Assembly: GCA_965645245.1 (NCBI GenBank)
Contig: OZ287078.1
Span: 496,001-560,000 of the forward strand
Length of the DNA stretch: 64,000 nt
Source of the DNA: Massalongia carnosa
Lineage: Eukaryota
Reading direction: 5' to 3'
Shown here piece by piece: positions 42,695 through 57,500 of the stretch. Under the pieces are notes generated by a model. The model was given only the letters and a program-made list of their open reading frames with translations. It was not told where the DNA came from and ran no database searches. How positions within the stretch are numbered: the stretch's first letter is position 1; the number at the start of each line of letters is the position of its first letter. Made by a program: the position numbers and the translations under genes.

Positions 42695-43483
42695 TCTTGA
42701 TTCAAAATCGTAGTTACGTCATGAACCCCTTTCGACTCCATTAGCAACCCGTGTAAACATCGATCAAACCCACCACAATGTTTATTCATGTATTTCAAGG
42801 CGACTGATCAGAATAGGAATCAGAAGGATGATATCGACACATTGATTCCAACATAGACATACATTTAAATGATGCTTAATTTTTGAATATTTGGGAATCT
42901 CCTTCCCCTTGTTAATTCGAGCAGAAAAACAGGCGAGCTCATGGTGAAGGAGAACCGGCCATTAGCCTCCTTTTGACGGATTTTAATCTTCACGCGGGGG
43001 ACAGCGTGCTTGGCGGACGGGATCCACTTGCTCATCTGGGGTTCTTTTTACAGGGGTACACGTGGTCGTGTGTGGCCAAAACCGTCTCTTTCTTGACGGG
43101 TGGCTTCAGTTTTCGTCCTGTTTGGGCGAGTTGCCAAGATCCATAAGGCTCGGCCTAGCTATTCTGGGGTTAGCATCTGATCGGCACTTCCATCCAGAGC
43201 CGACAACCAATTACAAACTAATTCTTTTCCAATCAGAGCTTCAAATCCTCAGACATCGGTTTCGACCAGCTCAGGCGCTGTTTGCATCGTTGGCACAATG
43301 GTGCTATTGTTAGCCTTGTTGAAAAATCTGTTGTGTTTATGTGCAGTTCAACGTCCGTCACGAACGATCTTCATTTATTCCACCTTGTTGAGTTCTTGCT
43401 CCATTCAACAACCACATCATCCTTGATTTGCTACGACCGCTGTACTCCTTTCATAGCTTCGAGTTTTTCAAATTAAACGCGTC

Positions 43484-47252: not shown

Positions 47253-48251
47253 TCAAGCACCGCAAGGGCTATTTGCAGGCCGTACAGGCCGAAAAACCGC
47301 CGTCCAAACATTCATACACTCAACTCCTTCCGCCCCTGCTTCTGAAATTATTGAAGCCTCTAAAGCATCAGCATGAGCTCTTAAGCTCTCTAAGCGAACA
47401 TTGTCTGTGCTCCTGTCGCTTACTATATGCGCTGCCTGTTTCCCAATCTCTATCTTCCTAGCGACCGATCTCGCAAATCCAGTCTCCCATTTTCCGTCTT
47501 CTAGCTCCACTGCTGGAGTGAAAGTCCTGCTGCCTATGACCTCCCATCCAGCCTGCGTGGCCGCGTCGACGTAAGCAGTGGGCGAAAGCACGGTCCTAAC
47601 ATTCCCCTGCGGAAGTGGATCGATAGATTGCAGCAGGACTGCTAAGAGGTGCGGTAATGCGGCAGGTTGGGAAATTGAAAGCGACCACTCGGCCAGCAGA
47701 AGCGTTTTAACTCCTGCATCGACTAGAGATTTGAAGCTTTGAACGAGGGTAGCGAAGGAAGGGAAGTAGTAGAGTGAATGCGCGAAATAGGCTGTGGTGT
47801 AAGTTCCTATAGGTTGCGATGCCACTAGCGCTGGCGCGGTGGTTTGCCTGAAGCACAGGTACTCTCCTAGAGGGCCGGTGGAGAGACTAAATTGGGCGTC
47901 GCCGAGGGTACAGGGTTCGCCTTGTCATAGAGTTGGGGCGGTTTGAAATGAATGCGGTCACACAAACTCACCGTAGTCCAAACTTGCGGGATCAACACCG
48001 GTGACTTTTGACTCCTTATTTCCTTGAGCTTTCAACACCGCGGCGAAGAGCGCGATCATATCACCTTGACCGCACCCAACATCCAGGGTCTGTTTTCCGA
48101 CGATGCTTGACTCGAGGTCATAGCCGTTTTCTTGGGCTATTTTTAGCCACGATTGGAAGATGTTAAGACGGTGCGCGCTCTGGCTGTTGGGACTGGAGGA
48201 GGTATTCTCGAGGATCGACAAGATTTCATGAGATTCTTGGAGCGTGGGCAT
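47253..48251 (-). CDS. Class I SAM-dependent methyltransferase
   Basis: LDVGCGQGD motif I, VDPASLDYG/GEPCTLGDAQ (intron 47921-47971), FAHSLYYF, LAEWSL. Confidence 0.85.
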
Positions 48252-48511
48252 TTTGATCTGCTTGATATGAACTTTTTTTCGGAGAACTTTTACTTTTAGG
48301 GAGTTCTTTTTTGGAGAAGTTGAACGTTCGCGCTGATCGTGGGAAGAACGTTAGGCTTATGTGTACCAGTTTTCACTCATGAGTGATGAACAGTTAAGTT
48401 AGTACCTCTGTACTCTGTAAGGGATGTGGTACGGTACATGGTTTAAATTACATAGAAGGCTAGACCGAGTACATACAGGCACGCTCGGGTATGTAATTAT
48501 GAGTGGGATGG

Positions 48512-49839
48512 CACGCGGGGGACAAAAAAAAAACTACACCAAAATTTAACCGGGTTCAACCCCCCACCAAAACACAAGCAATTTCCATACAATTTTGATG
48601 GGATAATCACCATTTCAACAACCAGTCATCCAATTCATTCAATCTATTCAATAACCAGTCATTTTACCCTCACCATCCAAAACAGCTCTCAATCTATCTG
48701 GCATAGTAGACACCCGTTCATTGATAAATGCCTGGGAAACGTTCGCCCACCCCTCATAAATTAGCCCCTTGGTCGTATCATCATCCCAATGAGGATATTT
48801 TTTTAAATATTGCTTCGGGGCCTGCCAGCAATTTTCTATGGGGGCCAAATCAGGTGAACATGGACAGTTGAAATAGTGCTTCAGATCGTTGTTCTGCTTC
48901 CAAGTGCGTACAATGTTTGATTTGCCTGGTCCATGTCCAGAATCACCGTCTTCTTCTAAGACGAAATCGTGTTTTGCTTCAATCCAGGGCTTCACAATAG
49001 GCTCCAATATAGAGTCGATATAGACTCGTTGACTCATCTTTCCATTGGAGTTTCCAGGAACTCTGTAAAAGTAGATATCTGACTTGAAGTCATGACCTGC
49101 AGCAGCCCAACAGTGATGTCTCTTCTTGACGGCCTCGTCTGGTTCATCTGCTTCTTGAATACAATCATGACAATAACGTTCACCTAATCTTCGTATGATG
49201 CGTAATTTGCCCTGAGGTCCCCATCCAAAGTGCACTTCGTCACTAAATCGAACTTGTTTCCAGTCTTCTGCATTTGGATATCTAGAAAGCATAGCATCTG
49301 ACCACTTCATACGAAGCTTTCTTGTCTTCTCGTTCACCCATCCCTTTCTGCACGCAATGCATTTGTGATAATCCATGGTGCCCATGATTCGTTGAATGGT
49401 TTTGCCACTGCAGTCTAGGCCTACTTCGAAGCCCAATTGCTCCCATGTAAGAGCGCGCGCCTCCATACCTTCTTCTTCCAATAGCCGTTCCATTTCTCTA
49501 ATCAATTTAGGCGTAACAATTTTGTGACGCCCACGAGCTTCAGAAACATCGGAATTATTATGATGACGGCGTGATGAGGCTCCTTCACGCAGGTATGCAT
49601 AGCCCCTCGTACGTTCCACATCAAATGTGCGAAAAACATCCTCTTTGTGATAAGAAATGCCTTGCTTTTCGCAAAATTCAACGGCTCCCTGAATTTTAGC
49701 TTTGGTAGGAGTCTCGATATGTTTAGAATTCATAATAATGATAATTATCCCATCAAAATCGTATGTAAATTGCTTGTGTTTTGGTGGGGAGTTGAGCCCG
49801 GTTAAATTTTGGTGTAGTTTTTTTTTTGTCCCCCGCGTG
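48512..49839 (-). mobile_element. IS630/Tc1-type DNA transposon (1328 bp) with ~103-bp TIRs, CAC..GTG ends and 5-bp TSD
   Basis: TIR CACGCGGGGGACAAAAAAAAAACTACACC... at 48512-48614 and 49737-49839; TSD GATGG at 48507-48511 and 49840-49844. Confidence 0.93.
48648..49733 (-). CDS. Intact DD37E transposase (DDE_3-like)
   Basis: RFSDEVHF...LEEDGDSGH...SPDLAPIENCW; 37 residues between the second D and E. Confidence 0.9.
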   Translation of the reverse strand: MNSKHIETPTKAKIQGAVEFCEKQGISYHKEDVFRTFDVERTRGYAYLREGASSRRHHNNSDVSEARGRHKIVTPKLIREMERLLEEEGMEARALTWEQLGFEVGLDCSGKTIQRIMGTMDYHKCIACRKGWVNEKTRKLRMKWSDAMLSRYPNAEDWKQVRFSDEVHFGWGPQGKLRIIRRLGERYCHDCIQEADEPDEAVKKRHHCWAAAGHDFKSDIYFYRVPGNSNGKMSQRVYIDSILEPIVKPWIEAKHDFVLEEDGDSGHGPGKSNIVRTWKQNNDLKHYFNCPCSPDLAPIENCWQAPKQYLKKYPHWDDDTTKGLIYEGWANVSQAFINERVSTMPDRLRAVLDGEGKMTGY

Positions 49840-49848
49840 GATGGCTAT

Positions 49849-51989
49849 CCCTTCGTCTGGCAATTTGGCAGCCATTTAGGTAATATTCAATTTTACACGC
49901 GCCGTCTCCGGGTAATGACTAATAACTTTAATCTGGCCAATCAGATTTTCCCTTTTCAACGATAATGGGTACAACACCTCAATCACCCCTCATGATCTAT
50001 GTAAAATTTCCCAACATGCCTCCTTTTTGCAACATGGTCCACAGCTCTTACATTGCCATCTGGTCTGACTTGCACGTCGTCTTTTGGTGCAATTTTCATC
50101 AATTTCCGCAAGTGGTCGGCGTCGTTTGAGTCTTGGCACTTGCCTTTTGCAGGCCAAACAATAGTCCTTCTTATTCAAATGCTCCCATTTGCAAGTTGAC
50201 TCGACGTCTTTATTAACGTCTTGATTAGTAGTAACTATGACATCTGTCGGACGTTTCCGTAGGGCACCGGCTTGATTGGATAGTAGGGCATTTACTATTT
50301 CTTTTTGAAAGTCCAAATGGCTGAGTGTTGAATTCGGATACAGAATTCTCCACAATTTGAAGGCATTTAGAACGGCTGCATCCAGAAGAAAGATGAAAAT
50401 TGACCACCAGTAGCGACGATCAGATCTTTGAGGTGAATAATATGCTCTTTGCTGAGCATTCCCATCTGACCCGCCCATGTGCTGGTTATATTCCACGATG
50501 GGCATGGGAAATGGAAGCTTTTCTTTTTCATCATCAACGATGACTCTGGAATTTGCAGGAATTCCATGACGTCGACGGGAATTCTTGTAGAAAGAAGTCT
50601 TCAAATCCTCAATTGTATGAACCGTGGTCATGAATTGCACGGTGTTTAAATCCACCCATGCCATACACAGAATGTCCCCGTCATCAATGTTTGATTTTTA
50701 CTTTTATTTGCAGGTACCGTCATCAATGCCTTCTTTCCCCAGTCCTTATTCTTGGTGGCTGCAACCCTCAGACGTAGAAGATCAACAGGAAAACCGCATC
50801 CTGCATTAGCCGTCCCACAGGCAGCAATTCCAATGGTTTTCAGAGCTTTGAATAGCTTCGTATTTGTGAAGAAGTTGTCCAGAAAGATGACGTATTTCAA
50901 GCCTTCATCAGACGGTAAACTTCGAGCCAGTTGAATGACGACTAGGGAGGAAGGAGACAAATCCCATTTGGTTGTCGGAAATTTCAATTGTCCAGGCGTT
51001 TTTAACTCACTAATTTTGGACACCTGTCTTGCAATTAGTACGATGCAAATTGAGGCCTTTTCTACTCACCTTGGAGGTAAATAAGAAGTCAAAAAGATAA
51101 TTTTCCTGACATAAACTATAGATTTTGAAGCCTACACCAGCCGCCTTGGTGGCTATTTGCATAGTATGGCAGCTCCTACCCCTGAATAAAATCAATTGCT
51201 CGTCAACTGACACATGACTTCCAGGAATCCAGTATTTCTTTGATGCTTTTCGAAAGTCTGTGGCCAATGGTTCCAGCTTTTTCCACCAATCAGGGCCTCG
51301 AGTATCAATGATCTCATCTTCGTCGGGGTTGGATATCTTCAAAAATCGCTTGAGTTGCTCCCATCTTCGAAGACTCATGGCTTGAATCACCATGTCATGT
51401 ATGGCAAATTTAGGAGACGTGTTCCAATAGTCAGTAAGACGTGGCATCAGTGTATACCCCATATATAACAGACTTCCCAGAAAAGCTCCTACTTCAGAAG
51501 AAGAGGTGTCATGCCATTGACGTCTCTTGATGTCGTTTAGGGCATACTTCTTTTTCGCTTTAAGATTGGTGTTTTTAGCTATGATTTCAAGCATTTCAAA
51601 GCTAAAGAAGAGGCAGAATAAACTGAAAGGAGTCTGATTTATCAAGCGCAACGTCTCGTCCGGCTGTGGTTTTCGAAATGGAATCGAAATTGGACAATAA
51701 TTTGATGACGGAGGGGGCATGGAGTCAATTATGCTTTGTACGCTGGGTTTATTCTTTTTGGCCTGTTCTTTCAGAATTGAGGGGGGCAAAGCGTCTGATT
51801 GGTCAGGAACTTCTATCTCAATGCCTCTCATGATTATTCTAAAGAAATTGTAGATGTTTTAATGATTTTCAACTGATGTTTACCTTCTTATTTACAAAAA
51901 AAGGTGAGAATGTTTTGAAGTTCGCGACTCAGCCCTACGGTATCTCACTAAGCCTATTTAAGGTGGCTGCCAAATTGCCAGACGAAGGG
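49849..51989 (-). mobile_element. piggyBac-family transposon, second family; transposase with one intron and one frameshift
   Basis: TIR CCCTTCGTCTGGCAATTTGGCAGCCA and its reverse complement; transposase 49990-51831: SVDEQLILFRGRS, intron 51024-51069, LDNFFTN, frameshift at the T5 run near 50697, YNQHMGGSD, Cys-rich tail. Confidence 0.93.
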
Positions 51990-52102
51990 ATACAGTACTA
52001 GGCCAAAACTCTGCGGCCCCGCACCCCACCAACATTTCAATCATTCTATTCAATCAACAATCAACCACGTCACGATTGCTGAAATGTCTTGAAACTTTAC
52101 AT

Positions 52103-53384
52103 GATGATGATGATGATGATAATTCATTCTCGATGTGGCACCGTCCGAAGGACGGCCCATGCGGGCACATCTATGGGGCTATATACAGGGGTGAAAAAAC
52201 CTTACGAGGTGACAAAAACCCTGTGTTTCAACACTCCATCACCGACTCCTAGGGGCCGGAACGGATTCGGACGTCTATGCGGACTGCATGACCAGAAAGA
52301 AAAAGAAATGGCACGATGAATCGCGCACTATGGTCAGGGTAGGGACTTTTTTGAGCCTTGGTCGTTTTGATCTCGAATCGTTATCCAGCGGGGACTCAGC
52401 GGAAGACCCCCGTATCCCCTCCGAGCCGGGTCATCCAGTAGATCGAAATCAAATCCAGATGTATTCCTGCTCCCACTTTTGACTGTTTTTGTGTGTCTAT
52501 CGCCCTCGACATGCCTATCGCTGCTCGTACGTGTCGATGTCGTCACCTCTATCCCTTCAAGTCGACCGAATGTGCATACGCCTTCGTTATAAGTCATGGG
52601 TCAGATGACCTCGTTGCATCCACCTCGAAAACCATGGGTCAGAGGCCTTTCCGAGAATAATAAGGTAGAGAAGTGCACCTTCCACCAGGCCTCAATACCG
52701 TGTTGTAGTTTGACCGTTCTTCGAAAAGGACTAGGGCACCAAGCTTGTAGAGTAGCAAGGACTATTCCTGAAGTCATATACGTACACCGGCCACGGTGAG
52801 GTCGTCGGTGACATAGCCGTCACAAACGAGCCCCAACGGGAGTCCCTTATGCCTCATTATTCCTTTTCAGGCTGTACCGACTCGCCCGCCTTCCCATGTG
52901 CTCCCTCCGAGGACCCCTCGAGGCTGTGCCGACTCGTCCGCCTTCCCAAGCTCTTACTTCGATGGGAGCAATACTCTCGTGCTCTTTGGTGTGACCGAAA
53001 ACTCTGTTTTCCACCCGGTAAATCGCTTCGTAGTCGAATCGTAAACGTGTCGGCCCCCGTACGGGTACGAGGACTGTCGGGCGTCACCCCTTTCGCGTTT
53101 GTGGCAGTTCGACTCTTCCTCGACCCCCAGATTAGGAGCTACTCCTCCTATGACTGTGTCCTTCAGGAAACACCTCGAGAACTATGGCGTTTGTGGTTCG
53201 TTCTTTCGATACTCAACTTTCGTCGCGATGTGTGTGCTTTGGTGAAACCGCACGGAGTGCTCACCCACCCCCCGATTCACCTCCGACACCCACCCGTCAC
53301 CGAAGGGGAGAGAGACACTTGGCTCCTCTGGCAAGCAGAAGGTTCGTAGCCGGCACCGCGTACAGGTGGTCCTCGTTGCCAGCC
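52103..53384 (-). mobile_element. Non-autonomous non-LTR retroelement (SINE-like, about 1.28 kb) with a LINE-type 3' tail
   Basis: TSD (C)TTGAAACTTTACAT at 52088-52102 and 53384-53398; (CAT)n tail; 3' hairpins shared with the LINE at 1781; no RT-like ORF. Confidence 0.9.
53310..53384 (-). ncRNA. HDV-like self-cleaving ribozyme (predicted)
   Basis: GGCUGGC(P1) AAC GAGGACC(P2) ACC(P3) UGUACGC(L3) GGU(P3') GCCGGCU(P1') AC(P1.1) P4 hairpin CUUCUG/CAGAGG, J4/2 G-C-C-A-A, P2' G(U)GUC(U)CUC; begins at the element 5' boundary. Confidence 0.8.
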
Positions 53385-53444
53385 TTGAAACTTTACATAA
53401 TGATTACATACATACTAAACACGAATTCCCCCAAAAATTGATTT

Positions 53445-54530
53445 TTAATATTTAGTATACCATCCTTCCGACGCTATACACGCTTTTATCCTCCTACTCA
53501 TGCTCTCTATTAACCTCCTCATCATTTTCACATCTATCAACGTCCAGGCTTCTTCTAACGCTTTCCAAAGTACCTCACGAACAGTTTCATCACTGCCGCT
53601 CACCAAATCTATGTTCGGGTTGACTTGATAGACGAGCTTTTTGAGCACATACCAAACGTGCTCGATGGGATTTAAATCAGGTGGATAGGGGGGCCAATCG
53701 ATGACCTCTATGCCGTTCTCATTGAACCATTCCATCACCTTTTTAGCCTTATGTATAGGTGCGTTATCCTGCATGAAAATGAGGCCCGGTTGCCAAATTC
53801 CAAGCAGATTATCGTTCAATAATTCCATATATGAGTTCGCCGAGTACCCCGTCTTCTTCGCAGCAAAATCACGAGCTAATTTGTAAAGATCTGACCTGTC
53901 ATCTCCCCAAAAAGCTGCCCAGACCATGACACTGACTCCTTTGCCTTTGGGGACAGGTTGTATCATCTCTTTATTCCATTTTTCTTTCGGCAATCTGAAC
54001 ACCCACTGACGCTGTTTTCCTGACCCCTTTTCCACCGAGCACTCATCTGACCATATAACTCTTGACCACTGCTCAAAAGTCCACTCACGCCGCAGCAAGC
54101 ACCAATCCAATCGTTTCTTGGCCACCTCAGGCGTCAATAAAGGTCGTTTTTTAGCCACCCAGTTGGTTAAACCATACAGTTTGAGTGCCCGATAAATAGT
54201 CGTACGACTGCAGCCGAGCCCCACTTCTAGTTTGATTTGTGCATAAGTGATTCGTGGATTGATTCGTGCATGCTTGATGATATAACGTCGATCGCGTTCT
54301 GACAGCACTTCAGGCCGTCCAGAACGTGATTTAGACACGCCGTCGTTGCGAATTGAGTGCTTCTGAATGGTGCTCTGCACGGTCGATTTAGTGAAATTAA
54401 GAGTCTTCCCAATCTCGGTCGGTGTGTGCCCCAACGCCTGGGCCCCAACAATCATACCACGTTGATATGGCGTCAATTCAGTGTTACGAGGCCGATTACC
54501 ACTTATGGGGGTCAAAGAAGCACGAAGCAT
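53445..54530 (-). CDS. Tc1-type DD34E transposase
   Basis: N-terminal HTH, WSDEC, MVWAAF, FMQDNAPIH, DLNPIEHVW; 34-residue D-E spacing; the usual SPD reads PPD. Confidence 0.93.
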   Translation of the reverse strand: MLRASLTPISGNRPRNTELTPYQRGMIVGAQALGHTPTEIGKTLNFTKSTVQSTIQKHSIRNDGVSKSRSGRPEVLSERDRRYIIKHARINPRITYAQIKLEVGLGCSRTTIYRALKLYGLTNWVAKKRPLLTPEVAKKRLDWCLLRREWTFEQWSRVIWSDECSVEKGSGKQRQWVFRLPKEKWNKEMIQPVPKGKGVSVMVWAAFWGDDRSDLYKLARDFAAKKTGYSANSYMELLNDNLLGIWQPGLIFMQDNAPIHKAKKVMEWFNENGIEVIDWPPYPPDLNPIEHVWYVLKKLVYQVNPNIDLVSGSDETVREVLWKALEEAWTLIDVKMMRRLIESMSRRIKACIASEGWYTKY

Positions 54531-57500
54531 GGTGAAATGATGAGGTGGAAGATGGGGGTTTGATGAGTTGAAAACGCGAAATCACGAAAATTACGGGTTG
54601 GGCCGCAGACTTTTGGCACGGGACTGTAACTATTGTACAAGCAACCGACCTGTCCGAACGCTTACTTATGGATCGCCGCATTCATGTCTTGGAAGTCTTC
54701 TCTACATCTGACTAGGGCGTAATAACATTGGGTTTTTCGCAATGTATGAGTCTCGATTATAGATGGCAATTTCTTCAGACAGCCGATTGTTCCCAGCACT
54801 CTTTATGAAAGTCCGTGATTGGAGCATTCCTCATGCAAGACACAAGATGAGACATTCTATGTAATAAATCGACAGACCAATATTCGAAGCGCAAAGAGGA
54901 ATCAGATTAGCTGAAAAAGAAGATCTATCTCTACTACTATTCACAGAGCAACTTCTAAGCTGCAAATTTTTATCGATCTGCTTTGTTTCATTAGATCCTA
55001 CTTTTCATTATATAGCCCATGTGGTTGGATAGGTACATAGATAAGCAGACCGATTCGCTGAATCTTCCATATCAGGCGGAGAAGGGTTTCTACATCAACG
55101 TTGCCTTTTCGTATTTTCACCTCTTCACCTCTTCCCCCCTCTTTACCTCTCTCCAACTTAACCCCTTTTCCTATCTTATAAGGGTTCTCATTATGTCTCT
55201 AACCTTACACCTCCCTGCACCTCGCCGTGGTCACTAGATTCGATCAGAATGTCCTGTTGTCAAGTTTAAACCTGGAGTGGTCGATCTTTGGGTTGCGGCA
55301 AGGGAACCCGGTACGGTTGCGATGACAGCAGAAATGCCCAATACCTAGGGCTGTTTGACAATCATGTTGGGGGGTTGGCGTTAGCCGTTCGCATGGCGGA
55401 CTCAAAAGAAGAAGAAAAGACCATAATTATGGGAGTACTACCACCTAGGAAAGTGACTAAGGCAAAAGGTCGGTGCGCCGCCCTTTCAAGCCGCTTCAGC
55501 ATAATCCACTTTGGCCGAACATGGATTTCTCATGCTATAACAGCCCTGGCTCTGCCGCGTTGAGAACGTCTGGAACAGGATCCAAAAAAGGGGTTCAGTG
55601 ATAGGCTGTTCAACGATTTGCTCAGCAGGATGGCTGTGTCAAGCACGCCTTAATTAGGTCATAGAGCTCTAAGCAGACACGCTTGACACTGATCGTGGCA
55701 GTTCAAGGGCAAAATCCTGCTTCCTACGCGAAGCTCGCAATGTATGCCATGTAATTATTCTCAGCTATTCTTCTACGCGAGGCATCTTGAGAGTCAAGAG
55801 CAATAATTGAGTTTTCTTTATCATGACCAACCCTTGGACGGTTTATTCAAGCTGCTTTGTTCGAAACCCCTTTGTATGAGCCTTGCACATATGCTAACTA
55901 AATGGCGGAGTCTCAAGACATTTCCACACATTTATGGGAAAACATTCCAAGGGTGGGGGAATGTGCTATCGTTGCAATGCAGGGTTTATGCAGACAGCCA
56001 TTGTTGGGCGCTTACAGAGAGATCACACACATCACCCCTCTCAGATTTATCAATACACCAAAAAAGAAGCACTCTTCATATACCAGAACCAGCTTCATCG
56101 TCCGAGTCCGCTGGTAGATGATGGGCCTCACAACTGACAATCGCGTGCGGTATCATGGCCTACGTTTCCATCTGGTCATTCATGTGCAAGCCCTAGCATC
56201 GCTTTCACCAAGCGCGAGATTCTTTCGTTTCTTTGTTAAACGCTTTTTGCGAAGGGAATCCATTCTTGATTCTTCTTTGATGAATCGAGCAGTATCATAT
56301 GAAGCATTAGTTATAAAATAGAAAGCTATCGTTCATAAACGTTACATCATCAAGTGGCAACAGCAGTCCCTTTATATATCTCCTCTCGACTTCTCCTTTC
56401 GCCCACTCTGTATTAAAGACACCAGATTACGCAAGACGGCCCTGAAAAGAGCATGCACCTATGCTTTACCCTTAAATATAACTTTGAGATTTCTGACAGA
56501 CATGCGAAAGCAACAAACAAGCCTTTCCAAAACCCATCCACCAGGAAACTCATTTGCCTACATCGCTAGAGCGGAGCATACCACTTCCTACGCAAGTGCG
56601 TTATAGTCGCGGTTCCAGGTTAATTAAAAACTCTTCAAAGAAACTAAAACGAGCAAGTAGAAGTCTGATAAGACGAAAATAGTTCCTGCAGCTCGAGTGT
56701 TCAACCAAGACGGGGGGGGGGGGGGGGGGGTGGATCCTTACTATTAACTAGATTCCATAAATTCCTTGCGTCCAGGTTTTGTCAATCGCTTGAGAGCGCC
56801 ATTGATTGATACATGGTCGATCTTTCGAAGTAGGTATACTCCCGTTTTCTTAGCTTTTGCCCTAGACTCTTCGACCCGAGAAATAAATTATTCGCAATGA
56901 ACTTTAAATCAGCGAAAGAAAGAAGTTTTGCTGTGCTCTTAAGGGAAAAGGGGGGAATGGGGCCCCGCCCTGGCGCTGTAGCGGCTTAACCGCATACTCA
57001 TCCTGAGATCCTTCCCTTCGTATTCGCAAGGACTCCCGGGAGAACTCACAAGCTCTGAGGCACTTCCGCTTCGGTCTGAAGTTTCATCATCATCTGCCAA
57101 TGCTCCCGCCCAAGACGTCCCCTATCACACGGGCGAGGGGGGAGGGCCAGCATCTTCGTTTTCCCAGGCGTCTCAAGCAACGCCTTCCGGAAAGGTTCTC
57201 CCCTAGCGAGAATTAAAGCTGAGAATTGTACTTTTTTAAATGTTTTCGTAGAAGAGCGAGAAATTCTTAACAATTTTTAGCGCATAAGCTTCTAAGAAGG
57301 CAATTCTAGAAAACCTCGGGACCTGAAGAACGTTCCGAAGGTAAATGAGCAGATCATTATTACTCCCGGCCGAAAAAGCTGGTTTTACCAATGGCTAAAC
57401 TAAGCTAACTATTTCACGAAGGCGCATACCTTTCTCCTTACTATCTCTCTAGGCACCATACTATCAGGCCTTGAGCCGTTCTCTTACTCAGGAATGCTTT

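Follow-up and report, generated by a model that had tools for sequence, protein, structure and literature searches.

Duplication of a TA dinucleotide is treated as a defining trait of transposons in the superfamily IS630/Tc1/mariner (ITm), and annotation pipelines use TA both to set element boundaries and to classify elements. The fungal element impala, for instance, duplicates TA and has short terminal inverted repeats (TIRs). TA duplication is described as the rule in the superfamily (PMC7325037; PMC2836289; PMC13469147), and it is reported for the fungal ITm elements Trem (PMC2836289) and Dici (PMC13469147). In the published classification, impala of Fusarium oxysporum is a DD37E element (Dupeyron et al. 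2020, PMC7325037), and a second DD37E group, TRT, is known from vertebrates and protozoa and is not reported from fungi in the available text of PMC5630946. Here we describe an element that combines a Tc1-like transposase with a flanking duplication other than TA. It lies at positions 48512-49839 of a 64,000-nt stretch of the Massalongia carnosa genome (contig OZ287078.1 of assembly GCA_965645245.1, positions 496,001 to 560,000 of the forward strand), hereafter the window, to whose own numbering all coordinates refer. The element is compact, 1,328 bp long, and consists of one transposase gene between terminal inverted repeats, the arrangement that characterizes the superfamily. We consider it probable that this is an intact Tc1-type element of a fungal family, inserted at a non-TA site with a 5-nt stagger, a 7-nt stagger being less likely. 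The core idea of an earlier sequence-only reading of the window, namely a possibly active member of an ITm branch with altered target capture, thus stands as the best reading.

The element is built from two arms and a single open reading frame (ORF). Inverted-repeat comparison places the left TIR at 48512-48614 (plus strand, starting CACGCGGGGGAC) and the right TIR at 49737-49839 (minus strand). The arms are 103 nt each, with 97 of 103 positions identical (94% complementary), and their pairing breaks off exactly at the C at 48512 and the G at 49839. The six mismatches fall at TIR positions 44, 50, 74, 80, 97 and 99, and five of the six are transitions. Between the arms, an uninterrupted ORF of 361 aa occupies 48648-49733 on the minus strand, its stop lying 33 nt from the inner edge of the left TIR and its ATG 3 nt from the inner edge of the right one, in agreement with the earlier description of TIRs of about 103 bp with about 6 mismatches that reach nearly to the ATG. 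The gene fills the whole space between the TIRs and leaves no room for another transposase. Because the right TIR ends 3 nt upstream of the ATG, any promoter or 5' untranslated region borne by the element would have to sit inside the TIR. The 29-nt terminus matches the window at two places, both of them its own sites, where 0.00 matches are expected (100 shuffles). Neither TIR patterns with up to 3 mismatches, nor blastn with the element, nor tblastn with the protein revealed a further copy in the 64-kb window; the tblastn search returned only the transposase itself and a 25%-identical DD34E gene.

Within the left TIR, the 10-nt motif CACCAAAATT is present as an inverted pair (48537-48546 and 48591-48600), 44 nt apart and mirrored in the right TIR. 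These inverted pairs, one per TIR, may represent putative outer and inner binding sites for the transposase.

The encoded protein is a Tc1-like ITm transposase, as indicated by its DDE_3 score, its sequence match to the Sleeping Beauty protein SB100X, its fold and its aligned catalytic triad. Pfam DDE_3 matched at 32.6 bits (E=8.5e-8), above the cut-off of 28.6, and the Pfam search of the transposase returned no family besides DDE_3 and HTH_Tnp_Tc3_2, and hence no RAG1-like domain. The ORF carries the motifs RFSDE, LEEDGDSGH and SPDLAPIEN. These contribute the triad D165 (codon 49239-49241), D262 (codon 48948-48950) and E300 (codon 48834-48836), all on the minus strand, which align respectively with the SDE, DNDPKH and SPDLNPIEN motifs of SB100X. 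In an alignment of 132 sequences, composed of the window protein and those 131 of 266 retrieved proteins whose length is 340-420 aa, the first position is D in 117, the second is D in 123 and the third is E in 122. With 37 residues between D262 and E300, the copy has DD37E spacing. Among solved structures, a profile built from 33 family members gave one match of relevance, to the catalytic domain of SB100X (5cr4, E=4e-17), with vRFSDEvHf aligned to vlWSDEtki, FvleEDgDsgHg to WVFQHDNDPKHT, and SPDLsPIEN to SPDLNPIEN. Relative to SB100X, a 3-residue insertion directly after the second motif converts DD34E into DD37E.

Structural modeling places the protein in the same group. The AlphaFold2 model has a mean predicted local distance difference test score (pLDDT) of 76.9 and a predicted template modeling score of 0.56. 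It comprises two N-terminal helix bundles (residues 10-50 and 75-129) with a disordered, RGR-containing linker between them, followed C-terminally by an RNase H-like DDE domain. The two bundles form a predicted paired-like (bipartite) helix-turn-helix (HTH) region. Foldseek searches with the model gave 18 matches at E<=0.001, and the 14 listed are all Sleeping Beauty, Mos1 or SETMAR, with retroviral integrases next and no RAG1 among the listed matches. The SB100X structure 5cr4 was matched at E=1.2e-9 (template modeling score 0.74 on the target), full-length Mos1 complexes at ~1e-8, and the SETMAR transposase domain with a template modeling score of 0.80; the full-length alignments to Mos1 have a high root mean square deviation. 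The sequence-only reading had described an intact Tc1/IS630-type element with an uninterrupted 361-aa transposase, the FSDE, LEEDGD and SPDLAPIE motifs and a 37-residue spacing. All of these features are present. In addition, at each of the 24 invariant and 65 nearly invariant columns in the 33-sequence alignment, this transposase has the family residue.

At the target site, GATGG is read directly at 48507-48511 on the left and at 49840-49844 on the right. The two copies are in direct orientation and therefore cannot be an extension of the inverted repeats. There is no TA within 7 nt of either element end, so that this copy lacks the TA insertion and duplication that are the hallmark of the superfamily. 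Matching 5-mers at the spacing of the element occur at 63 of 62,632 window positions (0.10%). The exact GATGG duplication without TA at either end had been reported from the sequence alone, and it is confirmed here. When the outermost C and G of the TIRs are included, the direct repeat becomes the 7-nt GGATGGC (48506-48512 and 49839-49845). A scan of junction offsets found only these two symmetric parses with a direct repeat of at least 5 nt, one of 5 nt with CAC..GTG termini and one of 7 nt with ACG..CGT termini. The duplication is not TA under either parse. Since both symmetric parses fit, one copy cannot fix the duplication length at 5; of the 5-bp target site duplication originally proposed, the non-TA flanking duplication holds, whereas its length is not uniquely 5, as 7 bp fits equally by symmetry.

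Several observations weigh against an intact Tc1-type element with a 5-nt stagger. On the side of the family assignment, Pfam HTH_Tnp_Tc3_2 reaches 26 bits (E=1.1e-5), below its cut-off of 31.5, and the NCBIfam IS630 model reaches 35 bits, far under its 100-bit cut-off. On the side of intactness, the differences between the TIR arms at 6 of 103 positions may reflect some age or an inherent asymmetry. On the side of the stagger, one complete copy was examined, from which neither the length of the duplication nor its generality is established, and the 5-nt parse needs two coincidental matches (~1/16) where the 7-nt parse needs one (~1/4), so that by symmetry alone the single copy leans about 4:1 to 7 nt. 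A further point concerns the terminal 13-mer CACGCGGGGGACA, which occurs a third time in the window at 42991-43003, where 0.03 occurrences are expected from shuffles even with one mismatch. Together with the GCGTG that follows, it forms an 18-mer at 42991-43008 that joins the first 13 nt of the element to its last 5 nt, and which is perhaps what remains of a lost copy, or else matches by chance. If the relic is real, its flanks, which share CTT/CTT only, fit neither 5 nt nor 7 nt. A reading of the site as a conserved coding exon found no backing: a short ORF across it has no Pfam hit and four candidate homologues among longer proteins, none of them significant, a result that does not decide between relic and chance.

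The strongest competitor retains the same element and the same mechanism and differs in its boundaries: the true termini would be ACG..CGT, the target site duplication the 7-bp GGATGGC found at both junctions, and the heptamer would merely happen to start with G and end with C. The count of coincidences given above speaks for it. Against it, Tc1-like ends mostly begin with CA, giving CA..TG termini, and the DD34E neighbor described below begins with CAGT. If the site at 42991-43008 is indeed a relic, its retention of the terminal C as well as the terminal G favors 5 nt. A target preference for G-N5-C, weak and symmetric, would account for the extra matches too. We regard the 7-bp version as possible but unlikely, and 5 nt as the somewhat better supported duplication length.

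A second insertion bears on the generality of the non-TA flank. In the window, ORFs reading out of the TIRs encode ..FFFVPRV, continued by DGYP at the right end and by PSHS at the left end. The protein collection was searched for ORFs running from the TIR into flanking DNA, and one match was obtained, P0267, on another contig. It reads ..FFVPRV and then AAYLRD, its terminal codons being kept although the repeat has diverged. The flanking DNA thus opens with an Ala codon, GCN rather than TAN. As a TA directly after the GTG would encode Tyr or a stop, P0267 marks a second insertion without TA at that place; judged from the protein, this junction does not discriminate between 5 nt and 7 nt. The P0267 flank looks like part of another protein (..AAYLRDRGINPKTIKQYINGIRSYQVDRG..), which suggests that this copy sits inside another gene or element.

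A different account would make the element a normal family member, of which this copy was placed by host repair instead of strand transfer by the transposase. An excised linear element might, for example, have been captured by end joining, with microhomology or fill-in of 5-7 nt, and the repeat would then carry no information on the transposase. In favor of this account, a single complete copy was seen, and the dense cluster of three nested transposons around its site makes breaks and repair plausible. Nevertheless, both ends reach intact to the last paired base and the direct repeat is perfect, which is the signature of staggered strand transfer and not of end joining, and P0267 is likewise without TA. 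We consider this route improbable.

It is less probable still, to the point of being very hard to sustain, that the element is an ordinary TA-inserting Tc1-like transposon next to a coincidental GATGG, its TA having been lost by mutation or hidden by mis-set boundaries. This account has the rule of the superfamily on its side (PMC7325037; PMC2836289; PMC13469147), but no TA occurs within 7 nt of either end, the identity of the TIRs stops exactly at the C and the G, and a 5-mer would match at zero offset by chance in 0.10% of cases. The ORF and TIRs are also too well kept for decay of both flanks, and P0267 provides another non-TA flank.

Transib elements are marked by CAC termini, a 5-bp duplication and a RAG1-like transposase. 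That the element is of Transib type, or a hybrid in which a captured Tc1-like gene is combined with ends and target capture of the Transib kind, is scarcely credible and Transib kinship is rejected: CAC and a possible 5-nt repeat are a superficial likeness, so that the Transib-like ends of the sequence-only reading do not carry over to the protein, for which Pfam yields DDE_3 and HTH_Tnp_Tc3_2 only and the listed fold matches include no RAG1, while the ORF leaves no space between the TIRs for a second transposase and Transib is reported absent from fungi in the available text of PMC5751038.

As far as the named hits show, the element is a member of a large, little-studied family of Pezizomycotina. 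Protein clusters at 90% identity contained 422 hits at E<=1e-3, and the listing covers the best 120 of them. Among representatives of 50%-identity clusters, an exhaustive profile search found 456 at E<=1e-30 and 4,242 at E<=1e-10; relaxed to E<=1e-3, it found 15,022, a figure that takes in the wider superfamily. Organism names are attached to 12 relatives among the best 120 of 422, and all 12 are Pezizomycotina. Their genera are Bimuria, Clathrospora, Pyrenophora, Macroventuria, Ophiobolus, Rutstroemia, Botrytis and Colletotrichum, which span Dothideomycetes, Leotiomycetes and Sordariomycetes (taxonomy checked for three of the 12). Database names for the relatives are "Tc1-like transposase DDE domain-containing protein" and "hypothetical protein", as well as the unexpected "HMG box protein", and an ESM Atlas look-up led to DDE_3 / HTH_Tnp_Tc3_2 clusters. 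The relative P0001, which represents 42 clustered sequences, matches the window protein along its full length with 99% identity, 2 residues being different. Many relatives lie on contigs of 1.28-1.45 kb, approximately the size of the element, which is what a multi-copy repeat would yield in assemblies. From these sequence comparisons, the element looks multi-copy and recently mobile, and the present copy is possibly active. Outside fungi, scanning genomes of bacteria and archaea gave 55 matching stretches, and eight of these encode relatives, which are distant, IS630-like, 25-39% identical and all bacterial.

The spacing between the second and third catalytic residues is variable across the family. 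In the 33-sequence alignment, 28 sequences have an intact D/D/E triad, with a spacing of 37 (18 sequences), 38 (7), or 39, 40 and 41 (1 each). In the wider alignment, 27 of the 132 sequences are without one triad residue, and the 105 with an intact triad show spacings of 37 (51), 38 (27), 34 (6), 39 (5), 41 (5), 40 (4) and others (7). The spacing thus lies outside 37/38 in 27 of these 105, over a range of 34 to 51. DD37E, proposed from the sequence alone, accordingly describes this copy correctly and fails as a stable family label (37 in 51/105, 38 in 27/105): it is a weak label that denotes the commonest spacing only. Because the spacing varies within the family, the number itself gives no basis for claiming kinship with TRT or impala.

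A second conserved feature sets the family apart. Four cysteines are retained in most of the 132 aligned sequences (C125 in 118, C128 in 120, C188 in 107 and C191 in 121), as are two histidines (H168 in 122, H207 in 123). The positions aligned to the four cysteines are not Cys in SB100X or in the DD34E neighbor. C125 and C128 lie in the helix that joins the DNA-binding region to the catalytic domain, and C188 and C191 in a poorly modeled loop past the first catalytic strand (residues 174-194, pLDDT <50), whose position we take to be that of the clamp loop of mariner transposases. The CxxC...CxxC arrangement, accompanied by the two conserved His, may form a candidate metal site in the linker/clamp-loop region. 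As a matter of speculation, such a site could stiffen or re-set the dimer geometry that sets the stagger.

On the preferred reading of an intact Tc1-type element with a 5-nt stagger, transposition would proceed as follows. By analogy with Tc1 and Sleeping Beauty, the bipartite HTH region would bind sites within the 103-nt TIRs, and the transposase would presumably act as a dimer. Its RNase H-like DDE domain (D165, D262, E300) would excise the element and join its 3' ends to the target. Where canonical Tc1/mariner elements insert at TA and use a 2-nt stagger, integration would here take place at a site other than TA, the stagger being 5 nt (GATGG, CAC..GTG ends) or, less probably, 7 nt (GGATGGC, ACG..CGT ends). 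The longer stagger would be set by the transposase and would therefore characterize the family. Extending this to the whole lineage, we tentatively propose that a Pezizomycotina-wide Tc1-like lineage dropped capture of TA with a 2-nt stagger in favor of a 5-nt (or 7-nt) stagger with little sequence specificity. This change may go together with the Cys4-type site (C125-x2-C128 ... C188-x2-C191), which would tie the linker to the clamp-loop region and reset the distance between active sites. Such a lineage would still be active and would have escaped the published ITm phylogenies.

The element belongs to a three-transposon nest. To its right, at a distance of six bases, starts a piggyBac-like element (49846-51992) whose 29-nt inverted repeats are perfect (TATCCCTTCG...). 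Three overlapping minus-strand ORFs (51010-51831, 50646-51023 and 49990-50664) share its DDE_Tnp_1_7 domain, which is broken up by frameshifts or short introns, and its flanks are TA..TA, not TTAA. Directly abutting it, and 2.1 kb from the DD37E element, is a DD34E Tc1-like element (51993-54626) with CAGT ends and imperfect repeats of ~28 nt. Its transposase (ORF 53445-54530, minus strand) is intact, also 361 aa long, and scores 55.9 bits with DDE_3, 63.8 with HTH_Tnp_Tc3_2 and 93.5 with NCBIfam IS630; it is 25% identical to the DD37E transposase (E=7e-18). The DD34E element has TA on both sides (51991-51992 and 54627-54628). It therefore serves as an internal control: the same genome carries a canonical, TA-duplicating Tc1 element. 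Just left of the nest, a 97-aa ORF (47958-48251, minus strand) has weak, sub-threshold matches to S-adenosylmethionine-dependent methyltransferases, and is probably an exon or a fragment of a host gene.

If a non-TA duplication of 5-7 nt proves to be family-wide, annotation pipelines would systematically mis-bound or mis-class the family. It would also offer a natural experiment on how a Tc1-type transpososome spaces its two strand-transfer events and, possibly, a compact (1.3 kb) fungal transposon tool free of TA sites.

Compared with known systems, Transib is alike in its CAC termini and 5-bp duplication under one of the two parses of a single copy, and differs in its unrelated RAG1-like transposase, none of which is found at the window element. 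Transib is listed as the one superfamily missing from fungi (Muszewska 2017, PMC5751038). A precedent within the ITm superfamily for a stagger other than TA is given by TBE1 of Oxytricha, Zator and Tc4/Tc5, which are not fungal Tc1-like elements. Their duplications are of 3 bp, versus 5-7 bp at the window element. TBE is placed within the Tc1/mariner tree (PMC7325037 supplement 4), and Zator is rare in fungi (PMC5751038).

A candidate for a fungal precedent comes from the sequence-only reading, which named hupfer of Beauveria bassiana. This precedent could belong to the family of the window element, if its description there is right. Hupfer is said to be a fungal IS630/Tc1-like element with a 5-bp duplication, a report that could not be confirmed: a literature search with thin coverage of subscription journals found no paper using hupfer as a transposon name. 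For 5-bp duplications or other departures from TA among fungal Tc1-like elements, searches made without most subscription journals and Repbase, and hence weak as evidence, returned nothing relevant. Should the old report be correct, the family described here would be its long-missing context. In the available text of PMC9977792 and PMC11544213, nothing bears on this family, and fungal target sites are TA or undefined.

The DD37E groups include TRT, impala, L18 and Mosquito. TRT shares with the window copy the same D-to-E spacing, and impala is alike as a fungal Tc1-like element with DD37E. The ascomycete 'group 9' around impala comprises Penicillium, Talaromyces, Aspergillus, Rhynchosporium, Cordyceps and Fusarium (PMC7325037 supplement 4), whereas none of the 12 organism-named relatives of the window element (best 120 of 422) comes from a group-9 genus. 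In the host table of the same study (supplement 3), 10 of the 11 Dothideomycetes rows are available and all are pogo; the rows for Colletotrichum, Botrytis and Pyrenophora, among those available, are also pogo. From these species lists, the family of the window element seems to be unsampled in that phylogeny.

The closest likeness is to Tc1 and Sleeping Beauty (DD34E). They share with the window element the single ORF between TIRs and an RNase H-like DDE domain, preceded by a paired-like HTH region that is predicted for the window element. Among solved structures, SB100X comes nearest both by sequence (E=4e-17) and by fold, and the SDE, DxDxxH and SPDLxPIEN motifs align. The window element differs in that it is DD37E instead of DD34E, with three extra residues after the second D; its family conserves a CxxC...CxxC arrangement that SB100X and the DD34E neighbor are without; and, unlike the TA duplication of Tc1 and Sleeping Beauty, its duplication measures 5 or 7 nt at a non-TA site.

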